Below are positions 26,845 to 62,906 of a stretch of DNA of 64,000 bases, in pieces; the stretch's first letter is position 1; every line of letters starts with the position of its first letter. This DNA is from Rhodoglobus sp. (GTDB lineage: Bacteria; Actinomycetota; Actinomycetes; Actinomycetales; Microbacteriaceae): assembly GCA_965279645.1 (NCBI GenBank), contig OZ257254.1:362781-426780 (forward strand), read 5' to 3'. Under the pieces are notes generated by a model. The model made no database searches. It was not told where the DNA came from and saw only the letters and a list, made by a program, of their open reading frames with translations. Both the position numbers and the translations under genes were made by a program.

Positions 26845-27936
<1,092 letters not shown>

Positions 27937-27943
27937 CCCCCAG

Positions 27944-27965
27944 GCGGGTCGAGCTTGACGAGACC
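27944..27965 (+). repeat. REP-like element, family B (after ilvC)
   Basis: gcgggtcgagcttgacgagacc; 20/22 identical to the copy at 60971. Confidence 0.75.
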
Positions 27966-28020: not shown

Positions 28021-28258
28021 ATGAAACCTGTCACGAGTGCGGCAGAGCTTGAGCAGATCCTGGGGCGGCCCGAGCCGCGGGTCGCGAACAAGGCGCGAAG
28101 CACGCTGCACGCGGTCGACCGGGAGTGGTTGGCGGCGGCATCCCTCGCCTTCATGGCCACGAGCGATGCCGAGGAACCCGGGGCGCGGCGACACCCTGCG
28201 CATCAACGGGCGCGCGACGATCGTGAGCGACGCGCCATTCTTCGACCACGGTCCCTGA
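28021..28258 (+). pseudogene. Decayed pyridoxamine-5'-phosphate-oxidase-like flavoprotein gene (MSMEG_1061 type)
   Basis: Frame 1: MKPVTSAAELEQILGRPEPRVANKARSTLHAVDREWLAAASLAFMATSDA. After a +1 shift: PGRGDTLRINGRATIVSDAPFFD, then a stop inside a repeat. The middle (SPKGD..PGN) and C-terminal parts recalled for the family are absent. Confidence 0.72.
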
Positions 28259-28336
28259 GGTTCTCTACGGTCCCTGAGGTTCTCGAAGGGAACGAGCCAG
28301 TCACGGGCGTTCCCTTCGAGAACCTCAGGGAACGGG
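28248..28336. repeat. REP-like palindromic element, family A, with a partial tandem duplication
   Basis: Perfect 23-bp arms ccctgaggttctcgaagggaacg (28272-28294) and cgttcccttcgagaacctcaggg (28308-28330); 18-bp direct repeat acggtccctgaggttctc at 28248 and 28267. Confidence 0.9.
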
Positions 28337-46552: not shown

Positions 46553-47653
46553 TTGAATAAGACGCTTGCCGCCGTAGGCGCTTCCGTGCTTGGTCTGGCC
46601 TCGGCCACCATGGTCGGTGCTCCCGCGCAGGCGGGGTTGCCGACCGCTACCGACCCGTGCACCGACATGAACGCGCAGGTAGACGCAACCGGCAAGATCA
46701 CCACGAACTGGTACCAGAACTGCGTGCCTCAGTACGGCTTGGGCAAGGCCGAGTTCAGCATCGTCGCCGATGAGGATGACCCCACCGTCGAGTTTCCCGA
46801 AGGTTTCGTGTCGCTCGAAGAGCTCGACGCCGACGCCTTCTCGACAACGCTCGACCAGGACGCGATTGATACCTACCTCAGTAGTGACTCCAGCGTTCCG
46901 ACCCTGTCGCCCATCACCCCCGTGGTCTCGTTCCTGAATGACCCCACCGTGCAGCGTTACTACGCGGTCGTTGTCGCTCCCGTCGAGTCGATCGAGTTCG
47001 CCGAGGTTCCGAGCGATGAGGCTGCAGCACAGTGCGGCCTGGGAGTCGTCGACTACAGCGGGCGGTGGCGCGCAACGTTCGGCTCGGTCGACACCACGAT
47101 CACCCAGACGGTTGGTGACGAGATCTGGAGCTACACGGTCGAGGCGCAGCCCGCACCCACCTACTTCTTCGGCACGTTCTCGAGCGGTGAGCTTGTGGGG
47201 GACTGGTGCGTTACCGACGGCACTCACACGATCACCTCCGACAACGCCGACTTCACCACAGGCGATCAGCTCTTCGGTCTCGTCTTCAACAGCCTTCCGG
47301 ATGTCGCGGGCGATGGTGTCTTCGGCAGCCTGGGCACCTTCGCCCCGGTCATCTCCGCAGCGCCTCCCGTCGACCCGCCAGTCGACCCTCCCGTAGATCC
47401 TCCGGTCGACCCTCCCGTGGATCCTCCTGTCGACCCGCCGGTAGATCCGCCTGTAGACCCGCCCGTCGACCCCCCGGTTGATCCCGACCCGCCCGTCATC
47501 GACGACGAGCCGGTTGTGCGGCAGGCACTTCCCAACACAGGCGTGAACATTGCCGAGACCGCGGTTCCGGCCGCGATCGCGGGCGGAGTCATCCTGTTGG
47601 GTGGCGGGCTCATCGCGGGCGCCGCGATCAGGCGTCGCCGCAACCGCGTCTAG
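46553..47653 (+). CDS. Secreted sortase-anchored (LPNTG) surface protein with a (VDPP)n stalk
   Basis: TTG 46553 after GGGGGA; signal peptide ending PAQA; LPNTG followed by a TM helix and an RRRRNRV tail. Confidence 0.85.
   Translation: MNKTLAAVGASVLGLASATMVGAPAQAGLPTATDPCTDMNAQVDATGKITTNWYQNCVPQYGLGKAEFSIVADEDDPTVEFPEGFVSLEELDADAFSTTLDQDAIDTYLSSDSSVPTLSPITPVVSFLNDPTVQRYYAVVVAPVESIEFAEVPSDEAAAQCGLGVVDYSGRWRATFGSVDTTITQTVGDEIWSYTVEAQPAPTYFFGTFSSGELVGDWCVTDGTHTITSDNADFTTGDQLFGLVFNSLPDVAGDGVFGSLGTFAPVISAAPPVDPPVDPPVDPPVDPPVDPPVDPPVDPPVDPPVDPPVDPDPPVIDDEPVVRQALPNTGVNIAETAVPAAIAGGVILLGGGLIAGAAIRRRRNRV
47369..47488 (+). repeat. Coding 12-bp repeat: VDPP x9 plus VDPD
   Basis: Ten units read directly; synonymous codons differ between almost all units. 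Confidence 0.95.
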
Positions 47654-49506: not shown

Positions 49507-50655
49507 ATGACCAAGACAGCGGTGCACTTCGGGGCTGGGAATATTGGGCGTGGCTTCGTCGCGCAGTTTTTGCACGAAAGCGGGTACGAAGTCGTCTTTG
49601 CCGACGTGAGCGAAGAGCTCATTGGTGCCTTGCAGAAACAGCCGAGCTACCTGGTGATCGAGGTCGGCGAAGGAGCCGTCACCAAGATCGTCGACAACTA
49701 CCGCGCGATCAACTCGAAGAGTCACGAGGCCGACGTCATAGCGGCCATCGCATCGGCCGATGTCGTCACGACCGCGGTCGGCGCGCGCATCCTGCAGTTT
49801 GTTGCGCCCGTAATCGCGAAGGGACTTGCGGCTCGTGAGAACAGCGAGCCGCTCGTGGTGATCGCCTGCGAGAACGCGATCGGCGGCACCGACATGCTTG
49901 CTGCTGAGGTGCGCAAGCACGACCCCGCGACGAACGCGATCTTCGCGAACTGTGCGATCGACCGCATCGTGCCCGAGCAGTCGGGTGGGCTGGATGTCAC
50001 GATCGAGTCGTTTTTTGAGTGGGTCGTAGACAAGTCCCCGTTCCCTGAGGCGCTCGAAGGGAGCGGCAAGCAACTGCCCGACATCTACGGCATCACCTGG
50101 GTCGACGACCTCGAGCCATTCATCGAGCGCAAGCTCTTCACCGTCAACACGGCGCACGCAGCGGCGGCCTACCACGGCATCGACCGTGGCTGGGTCTCGA
50201 TTCGTGAGGCGCTCGCGACTCCCGAGCTGCAGGCCGAGATCCGCGCCGTGCTCGCCGAGACCAAAGAACTGCTCGTGGTCAAGCACGGCTTCGATCCCGA
50301 CGAACAGCAGGCCTACATCGAGAAGACGCTCAAGCGCATTTCGAACCCCGCCTTGCCCGACACGTGTGAGCGCGTCGGCCGCGGTCCATTGCGCAAGCTG
50401 TCGCGTCACGAGCGGTTCATTGGTCCCGCGGCAGAGCTCGCCGAGCGCGGCCTTGAGGTGTGGAACCTGCTCAACGCTGTCGGAGCAGCGCTTCGGTTCG
50501 ATGTCGAAGAAGATGCCGAGAGCGTAGAACTGCAGGCGTTGCTCTCGGGCGGGGCGCCGGCGGATGCCCTGGCCGAGACCATCACGGGACTTGAGCCGAG
50601 TCATCCACTCTTCCCGTATGTTGTCGAGGTCATCGAGCTGCGACTGAATCGATGA
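49507..50655 (+). CDS. mtlD: Mannitol-1-phosphate 5-dehydrogenase
   Basis: AVHFGAGNIGRGF, VTTAVG, IACEN, IDRIVP, ERKLFTVNTAHA, RVGRGPLRKLS..ERFIGP. Confidence 0.95.
   Translation: MTKTAVHFGAGNIGRGFVAQFLHESGYEVVFADVSEELIGALQKQPSYLVIEVGEGAVTKIVDNYRAINSKSHEADVIAAIASADVVTTAVGARILQFVAPVIAKGLAARENSEPLVVIACENAIGGTDMLAAEVRKHDPATNAIFANCAIDRIVPEQSGGLDVTIESFFEWVVDKSPFPEALEGSGKQLPDIYGITWVDDLEPFIERKLFTVNTAHAAAAYHGIDRGWVSIREALATPELQAEIRAVLAETKELLVVKHGFDPDEQQAYIEKTLKRISNPALPDTCERVGRGPLRKLSRHERFIGPAAELAERGLEVWNLLNAVGAALRFDVEEDAESVELQALLSGGAPADALAETITGLEPSHPLFPYVVEVIELRLNR
50037..50062 (+). repeat. Family A REP half-site inside mtlD (in frame, PFPEALEG)
   Basis: 24/26 identical to the reverse complement of 28311-28336. 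Confidence 0.85.
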
Positions 50656-51072: not shown

Positions 51073-51453
51073 ATGACTGACACCACGTTCCCCGAGGCTC
51101 TCGAAGGGAAAAGCCCGAGAAGCTACGGCTTTCTATCCCTCACGATCGCGGCGGCGTTCGGCCTGTTTTTTGCCTACGACCTGTGGGAGGCGGTCTCGAC
51201 CCTCATCGCCCTTCCCCAGTTCTATTCGGCCTTCGGCCTCGACGCCTCCTACATTCCGTGGTGGCTGCTGTGGCTCGGTGTGCTGATTCCCCCCGTGCTG
51301 TACGGGCTGGCGCTGCTGATCGGTCGCAAGCAGGGCGTGCTTGCGCGCACCCTCATCCTTCTCGTGGGTCTCGCGTTGTCGGCGGCACTCAGCCTCAGCG
51401 CGATCGCGCTCGAGCAGGTGCTGCGGCCCGAGTTGATCGCCGTTATCGGTTAG
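51073..51453 (+). CDS. Hypothetical membrane protein
   Basis: About 3 TMs (FAYDLWEAV); starts 1 nt after the previous stop. Confidence 0.75.
   Translation: MTDTTFPEALEGKSPRSYGFLSLTIAAAFGLFFAYDLWEAVSTLIALPQFYSAFGLDASYIPWWLLWLGVLIPPVLYGLALLIGRKQGVLARTLILLVGLALSAALSLSAIALEQVLRPELIAVIG
51086..51110 (+). repeat. Family A REP half-site inside the 51073 gene (in frame, FPEALEG)
   Basis: cgttccccgaggctctcgaagggaa, 23/25 identical to the family A arm. Confidence 0.85.
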
Positions 51454-59238: not shown

Positions 59239-60714
59239 ATGTCAGCCCCATTTTCTACCGCAACCGGAACCGACGTTCGCGTTCGTTTCTGCCCCTCGCC
59301 GACCGGTACGCCGCACGTCGGTCTCATCCGCACAGCCCTGTTCAACTGGGCGTACGCGCGCCACACCGGCGGCAAGCTTATCTTCCGAATCGAAGACACC
59401 GACGCGGAGCGCGACAGCGAGGAGAGCTACCTGCAACTGCTCGACGCGTTGCGCTGGCTCAACATTGACTGGGACGAGGGAATCGACGTCGGCGGCCCGC
59501 AGGCGCCGTACCGCCAGTCGCAGCGCACCGACATCTACCTCGGTGTGATCGAGCAGCTCAAGGCGGCCGGTCACCTGTACGAGTCGTACGCGACGGGCGA
59601 AGAGATCGAGGCCCGCAACGTGGCCAACGGCCGCGACCCCAAACAGGGTTACGACAACTTCGAGCGCGACCTCACCGATGCCGAGCGGGAGGCGTTCCGC
59701 GCCGAGGGGCGCCAGCCCGCCCTGCGTTTGCGGGTGCCCGACACCGACCTCAGCTTCGACGACCTCGTGCGCGGCGAGATCACCTTCCCGCAGGGATCAT
59801 TCACCGACTTCGTCGTCGTTCGGCCCAATGGCGCTCCGCTGTACACGTTCGTCAACCCCGTGGATGACGCGCTCATGGGCGTCACGCACGTGCTGCGCGG
59901 TGAAGACCTGCTCTCGTCGACTCCCCGGCAGATTGCGCTGTACACCGCGCTCATCGAGATCGGTCTCACCGACTTCATCCCTCGCTTCGGCCACCTGCCC
60001 TATGTGATGGGGGAGGGCAACAAGAAGCTCTCGAAGCGCGACCCTGAATCGAACCTCTTCCACCACCGCGACCGCGGGTTCATTCCCGAAGGCCTCGTCA
60101 ACTACCTGTCGCTGCTGGGCTGGTCGCTCTCGGGTGATCGAGACGTGTTCTCGATCAACGAGATGGTCGCGGCATTCGACGTTGTGGATGTCAACCCCAA
60201 CCCCGCGCGTTTCGACGTGAAGAAGGCCGAGTCGATCAACGGCGACCACATTCGCCTGCTCTCGACGGAGGAATTCGCCAACCGTTTGCTGCCCTACCTC
60301 GGTGATCTCATTCGCACCGAGGCCGACCGCGAGGTGCTGCTGTCGGCCGCGCCCCTCGTGCAGGAGCGCATGCAGTTGCTCGGCGAGGCACCGGGCCTGC
60401 TTGCGTTCCTGTTCACCGCCGACGACGACCTCGTGTTTGAGGCGGATGCCCTGCCCGGTGCCGAGGGCCCCGAGGTGCTCGACGCTGCGCTCGCCGTGCT
60501 GCCGGGCATCCCGGAGTGGACCCACGATGCCATCGAGGCTGCGCTGCGCGCCGAACTTATCGACGTGAAGCAGCTCAAACCGCGCCTGGCCTTCGGGCCC
60601 CTGCGCAGCGCCATCTCGGGGCGCCGCATTAGCCCGCCGCTCTTCGAGTCGATGCAGATTCTCGGTCGCGAGTCGTCGCTCGCTCGGATCGCGAGGCTTC
60701 GGGCGCAGCTGTGA
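59239..60714 (+). CDS. gltX: Glutamate--tRNA ligase
   Basis: [13 protein letters not shown] (HIGH-like), RIEDTD, RGEDL, KKLSKR (KMSKS-like). Confidence 0.97.
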
Positions 60715-61622
60715 GCGACTGGGATGTCGTGATTGTCGGCGGTGGACCCGCCGGCCTGAGTGCCGCCCTCAACCTCGCGAGAGCTCGGCGTCGGGTGCTC
60801 GTGCTCGACAGCAACCGTCCGCGCAACTCGGCGACCTTCCGGTCGCACGGGTTTCTCAGCCGTGATGGCATCTCGCCGCTCGAACTGCGCCGTCTCGGTC
60901 GCGAGGAACTCGAGGCGTATCCGAACGCATCATTCGAGAAGACCGTGGTGAAGCGGGTCGAGCCGACCTCGCGGGTCGAGCCTGGCGAGACCACCCCCAC
61001 CGGTTTCATCGTCGACGACAAGTACACCACCACGACCTTCGTTGTCGCCACGGGACTGCGCGAGCAGCAACCACCACTACCGAGCCTGCGCGCGTTCTAC
61101 GGCACGAGCATCCATTCGTGCATGGAGTGCGACGGCTACGAATACAGCGACAAGCCCATCGCTCTCATCGGCGAATCGGGCGACCTCGCCGACCGCGCCC
61201 TGCTGCTGTCGCAGTGGAGTCGCGACCTCATCGTGTTCACCAACGGCGTCGGTGTCGTGACCGACGAGCAGGAGGCGAATCTGGGCACGCTGGGTATTCG
61301 CGTTGACCGTCGACCCGTGGCGGATGTCGCGGGCGATCGCGATGGAGTCACCGGTGTCACGCTTGCCGACGGTGAGACGGTGCCGCGCGTGGGCATCTTC
61401 GTGCGCCCCATCTACACGCCTGCGCTCGATTACGTCGAACCGCTCGGTCTGGCCCGAGACGCCGACGACCTGATCGTGGTCGACGACGTGGGCCGCACGA
61501 GCGTGCCCGGCGCCTACGCAATCGGCGACTGCACTCCTCCTGGCCCCCAGCAACTCATTGTTGCCGCCGGACAGGGCGGCCGCGTTGCTGCTGCCATCAA
61601 CAGGGATCTTCTGCACTCATGA
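60711..61622 (+). CDS. NAD(P)/FAD-dependent oxidoreductase (thioredoxin-reductase-like)
   Basis: [23 protein letters not shown] (CxxC), [11 protein letters not shown]. Confidence 0.92.
60971..60992 (+). repeat. Family B REP copy inside the oxidoreductase (in frame, RVEPGET)
   Basis: gcgggtcgagcctggcgagacc, 20/22 identical to both 26852 and 27944. Confidence 0.8.
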
Positions 61623-62834: not shown

Positions 62835-62906
62835 TGGGGTATGGTGTAATTGGCAACACGGAAGATTCTGATTCTTTTGTTCTTGGTTCGAGTCCAGGTA
62901 CCCCAG
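62835..62906 (+). tRNA. tRNA-Gln (anticodon CTG), no encoded CCA
   Basis: Acceptor TGGGGTA/TACCCCA, D-arm GGTGTAATTGGCAACAC, anticodon loop TTCTGAT, T-loop GGTTCGAGTCC. Confidence 0.97.

Follow-up and report, generated by a model that had tools for sequence, protein, structure and literature searches.

Our results indicate that a two-module copy of a small dispersed DNA repeat, here called family B, was probably captured in frame in a hairpin turn of a thioredoxin reductase-like flavoprotein gene, where it is most likely carried as a neutral passenger. The copy covers 40 bases, 60953-60992 of the window (the whole 64-kb stretch of DNA that was analyzed), and is composed of an 18-nt short module followed by a 22-nt full module.

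The Repeat Copy and Its Host Gene

The 12-mer GCGGGTCGAGCC is present twice, at 60953-60964 and 60971-60982, and the start-to-start distance is 18 nt by direct reading. In the frame of the gene, the local sequence is GTG AAG CGG GTC GAG CCG ACC TCG CGG GTC GAG CCT GGC GAG ACC ACC CCC ACC GGT TTC, and the repeat-bearing stretch corresponds to residues 81-95 of the 303-aa ORF. The short module (60953..60970, + strand) consists of GCGGGTCGAGCC and GACCTC, encodes (K)RVEPT(S), and overlies native R-V-E codons. Its GACCTC tail is the usual 3' extension of family B, and the module may be a full unit that lacks the 6 nt TGTCGA. The full module (60971..60992, + strand) reads GCGGGTCGAGCCTGGCGAGACC and encodes (S)RVEPGET in frame. 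The G at position 60985 of this module is strain-specific; the runs X5, X6, and X7 and other genomic copies have A at the same position, so the G of the window is a derived change. A public-run contig of the source organism spans 60800-61150 with 0 differences, and the sequence of this region is no assembly artefact.

Two other matches to the 22-mer were found in the window at ≤3 mismatches, each of them 20/22. By shuffling, 0.01 matches were expected, and 0/100 shuffles reached 3. Both matches are single-module family B copies on the + strand that flank ilvC. The copy at 26852-26873 lies in the 60-nt ilvN-ilvC intercistronic spacer and is co-directional with the operon, and the copy at 27944-27965 begins 8 nt past the ilvC stop codon, upstream of a separate terminator-like hairpin. 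Compared with the family core, 60973-60992 matches at 19/20 positions and the ilvC-flanking copies at 19/20 and 18/20, and everything else in the window differs by at least 4 mismatches. By sequence comparison, 60973-60992 is assigned to family B. The three family B copies of the window are all on the + strand, and there is no inverted doublet among them. These results bear out the first-pass annotation, which had reported the repeated 12-mer at 60953 and 60971 and the 20/22 agreement of the 22-mer with both ilvC-flanking copies. The 12-mer alone has 5 matches in the window at ≤1 mismatch versus 2.1 expected, which is no over-representation; its significance lies in the family context and not in the window count.

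The copy is located in a gene (60711..61622, + strand, 303 aa in the ORF list) for a thioredoxin reductase-like FAD/NAD(P)-dependent disulfide oxidoreductase. The protein contains GGGPAG at residues 10-15 and the dithiol C137-M-E-C140, and it belongs to Pfam PF07992 Pyr_redox_2 (E 2.9e-27). The nearest solved structures are 4fk1 (a putative thioredoxin reductase, E 1.7e-54), 4ntd, DepH, and GliT. Homologs number more than 5000, and the nearest named ones are from Salinibacterium, Rhodoglobus, Leifsonia rubra, and Conyzicola, all of which are Microbacteriaceae. Having the Pyr_redox_2 fold, GxGxxG, and CxxC, the predicted product is a low-molecular-weight thioredoxin reductase-like flavoprotein. 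The GTG start codon of the gene overlaps the stop codon of gltX (GTGA, 60711-60714). In addition, an ATGA overlap at 61619-61622 joins the reductase gene to a conserved 225-aa gene of unknown function. Through these overlaps gltX, the reductase gene, and the 225-aa gene are translationally coupled, and a tRNA gene lies downstream (62835-62906).

Family B as a Dispersed Repeat

The core of family B is GGGTCGAGCYTGTCGAGACC, and the canonical unit is G[CT]GGGTCGAGC[CT]TGTCGAGACC(TCACC). When one genome of each bacterial species was scanned with GGGTCGAGCYTGNCGAGACC, at least 119 stretches were returned. The taxa among the matches listed include Microbacteriaceae, Promicromonospora, Nocardioides, Micropruina, Isoptericola, Agromyces, Cryobacterium, and others. 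Among the matches listed, those with N = T are nearly all actinobacterial, and the few proteobacterial ones (N = G or C) look like chance coding matches. A gathering scan against Rfam, covering the window and three canonical loci, found only a tRNA and no model for family B. Similarly, the searchable literature held no description of family B, its motif, or relevant actinobacterial REP-like repeats.

Most copies were found outside genes. Among the matches listed, a GC3/ORF test placed 108 of 128 classifiable copies in non-coding DNA and 20 in coding-like DNA; this classifier is crude and can be fooled by arrays (e.g., L074, L083), and only Pfam-confirmed coding cases are relied on here. Stop triplets flanked the copies in 41% and 42% of cases on the two sides versus 25% in controls (among the matches listed), an enrichment that supports a non-coding context and carries no directional information.

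Inverted doublets (L030, L035, L041), in which a gap of 10-15 nt separates two opposing units, are present in some genomes. The doublet at L030:3190-3265 folds into a perfect hairpin (-45.3 kcal/mol, z = -13.7). A strict inverted partner accompanies about 12% of the copies in other genomes (among the matches listed). Single units have a stem of 4-5 bp, GGGTC/GACCC, and their folding is weak (z -0.8, -1.8, -1.6). When the GGTC..GACC and GGTT..AACC pairings were compared, 4 double changes and 2 single changes were counted, a weak hint of covariation.

Family B also occurs in frame in other enzymes, namely an HrpA-like helicase, RlmN, isocitrate lyase, Lhr, LeuS, purine nucleoside phosphorylase, an FGGY kinase, and a tRNA methyltransferase. 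For the majority of the eight, the copy lies within or beside a Pfam domain, and the reading frame differs between proteins. Among the matches listed, all six frames are represented when the translated copies of different proteins are compared. Several family B insertions each are present in L049 (a DnaE-like ORF) and L045 (an HrpA-like helicase), including whole inverted doublets in frame (SSLSRPAGFDKLDHR; VEPVETTTGSRQARP).

A second repeat of the window, family A, has the sequence TCCCTGAGGYNCTCGAAGGG and 4 window matches versus 0.02 expected. Two overlapping direct copies lie at 28248-28334 together with an inverted arm (27 nt, 96% complementary) at 28268-28334, and single copies lie at 50038-50063 (~50042) and 51085-51110 (~51089). 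The first-pass annotation had regarded the repeat in the thioredoxin reductase-like gene as in frame and as belonging to a family separate from this one, and both points are supported here. The window also contains, at 47339-47506, some 10 or more tandem units of 12 nt, CCNCCNGTNGAY, which in that frame would encode proline-rich (PPVD)n.

Array Architecture of the 12-bp Duplication

The two modules recur together elsewhere in the same genome. At least three other contigs from the runs of the source organism align without gaps, at 5 mismatches, over 44-45 nt that include both modules (60948/49/53 to 60992/96). Two of the recurring array loci are bounded by a stop codon on one side and an apparent start codon (ATG) or ribosome-binding region on the other. 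The array copies in run X1 have A at 60985, i.e., TGACGAGACC, as in the ilvC copies.

The same architecture is observed in other genomes. Among the matches listed, a short copy (G[GT]TCGAGC) stands upstream in 25 of 120 canonical full copies, the modal short-to-full spacing is 18 nt (7 cases), likewise the period in the window, and every array spacing of ≤24 nt includes a short-only copy. Among these matches, the most frequent family B array is a full copy preceded at about 18 nt by a short module. Array periods divisible by three make up 15 of 25 among the matches listed (loci L008-L126; binomial p = 0.006), and this excess may mean either that many arrays lie in coding DNA or that the 18-nt module is a built-in feature of family B. 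In a Promicromonospora HrpA-like helicase, TCGCGGGTCGAGCCCTCC occurs twice and is followed by a full unit and then an inverted unit, all in frame. The resulting peptide, SRVEPS-SRVEPS-SPVEPVETTT-GSRQARP, has the same layout as the window copy in an unrelated protein. In run X6, from a groundwater strain that is ~98% identical, an extra GCGGGTCGAGCCGACCTC behind 60952, identical to the 18-nt short module, gives three modules in frame. The number of 18-nt modules therefore varies in frame between close strains, which is a length polymorphism of the coding region.

Taken together, the recurrence of the array, its place as the commonest array form, the layout in the helicase, and the three modules of run X6 indicate that the 12-bp duplication is internal to the element. 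The first-pass annotation had taken the duplication as a mechanistic clue, possibly to entry by microhomology at the target. As an insertion footprint the duplication does not hold, because the array recurs elsewhere; entry may nevertheless have been assisted by homology to the native R-V-E/D codons discussed below. A target-site duplication, or an upstream flank joined to a half copy, was also considered for the duplication and rejected, since the flank upstream of the first module (GTGGTGAAG) is unlike the spacer and the array is intact elsewhere. Terminal inverted repeats are absent from the window copy, and its sole flanking duplication is the one internal to the element.

Orthologs and Position in the Fold

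In an alignment of 120 orthologous sequences, the insert falls in a hypervariable turn between the strands V-x-x-[VI]-E-P and G-F-x-V, which is the one such spot in the protein. Its shortest form (S[IV]EP-GF) has 0 extra residues, and its longest, in Salinibacterium, about 30. The loop has 13 residues in the window versus 4 in P0002, P0004, P0005, P0006, and P0007, and the 4-residue turns of insert-free relatives read RVDRVEGHF, RVDKTESNF, and similar. An indel lies exactly at the insert, in keeping with the insertion proposed from the sequence at first. The net gain over the closest insert-free orthologs is 27 nt or 9 aa, T86-T94 (60966..60992, + strand), and these bounds are one of several equivalent gap placements inside 60963-60995.

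A neighbor-joining tree was built from metagenomic fragments with the loop masked and without bootstrap. In this tree, the window and P0001 (97% identical) are nested among P0002, P0004, P0005, P0006, and P0007, and the outgroup turns have 0-4 residues. The DNA of P0002 and P0004 has no repeat at the loop. A metagenome scan for orthologous DNA gave mostly distant, paralog-level relatives, about nine of which were useful, as outgroups. P0019 (RVEP-TPTGF) was considered as a clean empty site and rejected, since its clade carries family B-derived sequence and it may hold a decayed copy.

In the AlphaFold2 model (mean pLDDT 84), strands are formed by residues 83-85 and 99-101, and no secondary structure is present at 86-98. 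The insert is thus predicted to form an exposed β-hairpin turn in the FAD domain, a surface position compatible with the fold.

Family B sequence is also found in this loop in other orthologs. P0009 (L002) carries two exact 24-nt copies 33 nt apart that run into the canonical TCACCCGCG, the copy of P0008 matches at 21/25 positions, and P0013 has an exact 19-mer of the family including the rare codon CTT. P0036 matches the family core except for a CCG codon in place of CCT, and P0032 (L127) carries the subfamily variant GGTTGAGC..GTCGAAACC. A second copy in P0032, inverted and in frame just past the start codon (L127 91-135), encodes VSEVSTGSTGEDWD versus VSWD in P0013. Both P0032 copies are of the GGTT..AACC variant, whose two changes are mutually compensating for the GGTC/GACC stem. 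The number of independent acquisitions in the loop is uncertain and may be two to four. In addition, P0003 (L005 453-472) has an in-frame copy of family A in the same loop, TCCCTGAGGCTCTCGACGGG, encoding RALPEALDGR with 1 mismatch (0.00 expected). One β-hairpin loop has been entered by two unrelated repeat families. Insertions are clearly tolerated in this loop, and the resemblance of its V-E-P codons to the repeat is a further factor. Salinibacterium orthologs (P0042-P0073) have Ala/Asp/Gly-rich inserts of 15-30 residues in the same loop, e.g., LGAVGGPDAAGAADDGAVDGASATVGAGF, whose length differs by species.

The codons of the insert bear on its origin. Two of them are rare, CGG (8.8% of Arg) and CCT (7.9% of Pro), according to the usage in six confident genes of the window. 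When the copy was compared with L002 (P0009, a 74%-identical ortholog), 6/6 same-residue codons were identical, including CGG and CCT. In the rest of the gene the identical fraction was 0.53, so synonymous sites between the window and L002 are saturated. Judged by these codons, the insert appears to have arisen as DNA and not by convergence of the protein.

Origin and Fate of the Insert

Copying from another genomic copy, by template switching or gene conversion, would have brought the element into the gene. Its first module would have been anchored on the native R-V-E(P) codons CGG GTC GAG CC, which mimic the 5' half of the repeat, and the capture in frame would have taken place in the common ancestor of the window strain and its closest relatives. 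Later replication slippage could then add or remove 18-nt modules. The divergence pattern suggests that the peptide has been tolerated as an essentially neutral passenger, and the exposed turn and a length divisible by three would have allowed the insert to survive.

The element is at least 40 nt long versus a net gain of 27 nt over the orthologs. In insert-free relatives, the codons under the first module are CGG GTA GAC (L004), CGC GTC GAC (L006), and CGT GTC GAG CCC (L003), and these native R-V-E/D codons indicate that the pre-insertion sequence resembled the 5' half of the repeat. Homology-anchored copying, either a template switch or conversion, may be the simplest entry route. Between P0001 and the window, 6 of 12 amino acid differences are inside the 13 loop residues (Fisher p = 1.4e-6), and the full module of the P0001 copy is shortened by 6 nt. 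Divergence is faster in the inserted residues than elsewhere in the protein, as expected of a tolerated, decaying passenger, and the insert is most likely neutral.

It is also conceivable, although unlikely, that the repeat is ancestral in the loop of this clade, was lost or eroded in P0002, P0004, P0005, P0006, and P0007, and was kept close to the consensus by repeated gene conversion. The basal members P0009 and P0008 carry family B in the same loop, R-V-(E/D) at the end of the strand is common to the whole clade, and CGG GTA GAC CGG GTG GAG in L004 could be a scar. A second clade (P0013, P0032, P0036, P0067, P0040, P0015) likewise has copies that are variously decayed. However, an ancestral repeat would require several independent losses together with ongoing conversion. 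The P0001 copy has lost the signature at 3% protein divergence, and an old copy should therefore not keep 19/20. The layouts also differ: the copies of P0009 form a 33-nt tandem, that of P0008 is shifted, and the window carries a two-module array.

Selection on the motif, whether for a function of the VEPxET peptide or for a DNA or RNA binding or processing site common to the ilvC-flanking copies, is very unlikely. Such a role would fit the recurrence of the motif in the same loop across several lineages, the co-direction of intercistronic copies with their genes, and the hint of compensatory pairs between GGTC..GACC and GGTT..AACC (4 double and 2 single changes). On the other hand, no other part of the protein evolves as fast as the insert, its module number differs between close strains, and most orthologs are without it. 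The unrelated family A repeat occupies the same place in one lineage, and the copies in other proteins use all six reading frames. Least credible of all is that the insert arose by tandem duplication of 18 nt of native RVEP codons, a purely local event, and resembles the ilvC repeats by coincidence: plain local duplication does occur in this loop, as in P0034, where an 18-nt tandem duplication is made of purely native sequence (AGC ATA GAA CCG AGC GCC / AGC ATA GAG CCG AGC GGC), the upstream 12-mer coincides with native codons, and the window count of the 12-mer is non-significant, but the second half TGGCGAGACC is also family-like (19/20 to the core), the full 22-mer has a chance expectation of 0.01, the codons CGG and CCT are rare, and the whole array is present at ≥3 other loci of the same genome.

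Capture of a family B array, possibly by homology-anchored copying, is the preferred reading for this gene. A broader and doubtful extension of it is that Actinomycetota may harbor an active sequence-guided copying process, based on a RAYT-like or other nicking enzyme or on homology-driven template switching. This process would seed family B at GGTCGAGCC-like sites and repeatedly write VEPxET, VSTGST, and LDxLD modules into exposed loops of housekeeping enzymes, in numbers that vary between strains. If this were true, sequence-guided copying would be a general generator of loop-length diversity and not a matter of rare accidents.

Comparison with Known Repeats and Significance

Family B resembles several known classes of small bacterial repeats. 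As outlined in a review (PMC10969869), the Rickettsia palindromic elements (RPEs; Ogata et al., 2000) are about 100-150 bp long, encode 30-50 residues, and are found both between genes and in frame in conserved housekeeping genes. Like the RPEs, family B is dispersed, intergenic as well as in frame in intact conserved genes, and placed at a position tolerated by the fold. Unlike them, it has units of 20-45 nt that encode 7-15 residues, is built of 18- and 22-nt modules of unrelated sequence, is found in high-GC Actinomycetota, and is read in six frames. Family B works like the RPEs and is not a member of the RPE sequence families.

The REP and REPIN elements are mobilized by RAYT transposases and are defined as extragenic (PMC3116915, PMC2817692). 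Family B is similar in having units of about 20-25 nt that are mostly extragenic and occur as singlets, as arrays, and, in genomes other than that of the window, as inverted doublets with a long hairpin. In contrast to REPs, the window copies are singlets or direct arrays on one strand, each unit has a stem of 4-5 bp, and about one-sixth of the copies are apparently coding.

The mycobacterial interspersed repetitive units (MIRUs) of Supply et al. (1997, 2000) reportedly consist of units of 46-101 bp that lie between genes and overlap stop and start codons. By arrangement, family B is like them in being actinobacterial, in its direct-repeat modules, and in its intercistronic, co-directional, and strain-variable occurrence. 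This MIRU-like pattern is seen in the ilvN-ilvC and post-ilvC copies, at two more loci that lie between a stop codon and ATG, and in two- and three-module forms that differ by strain. Family B is smaller than MIRUs and, unlike them, is also present in enzyme loops. The enterobacterial ERIC and RU-1/2/3 are MITE-like elements of 100-170 bp with terminal inverted repeats (PMC2759123, PMC3184786). Like these, family B is a small intergenic repeat that is occasionally found inside genes and translated, but neither terminal inverted repeats nor a target-site duplication was seen for the window copy, unlike ERIC, RU, and MITEs.

The loop described here is a concrete case of one protein loop that has been repeatedly entered by two repeat families, and engineering could make use of it as a natural permissive site. 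Near-identical strains carry different numbers of 18-nt modules, and this constitutes a VNTR in a coding region. Family B repeats account for many unusual peptide strings (VEPVET, VSTGST, GLDKLDP, GSSLSRP) in actinobacterial protein annotations, and also for differences in length. In-frame colonization of conserved genes by repeats is best known from Rickettsia, and it also takes place in free-living high-GC Actinomycetota, with a much smaller and modular element.
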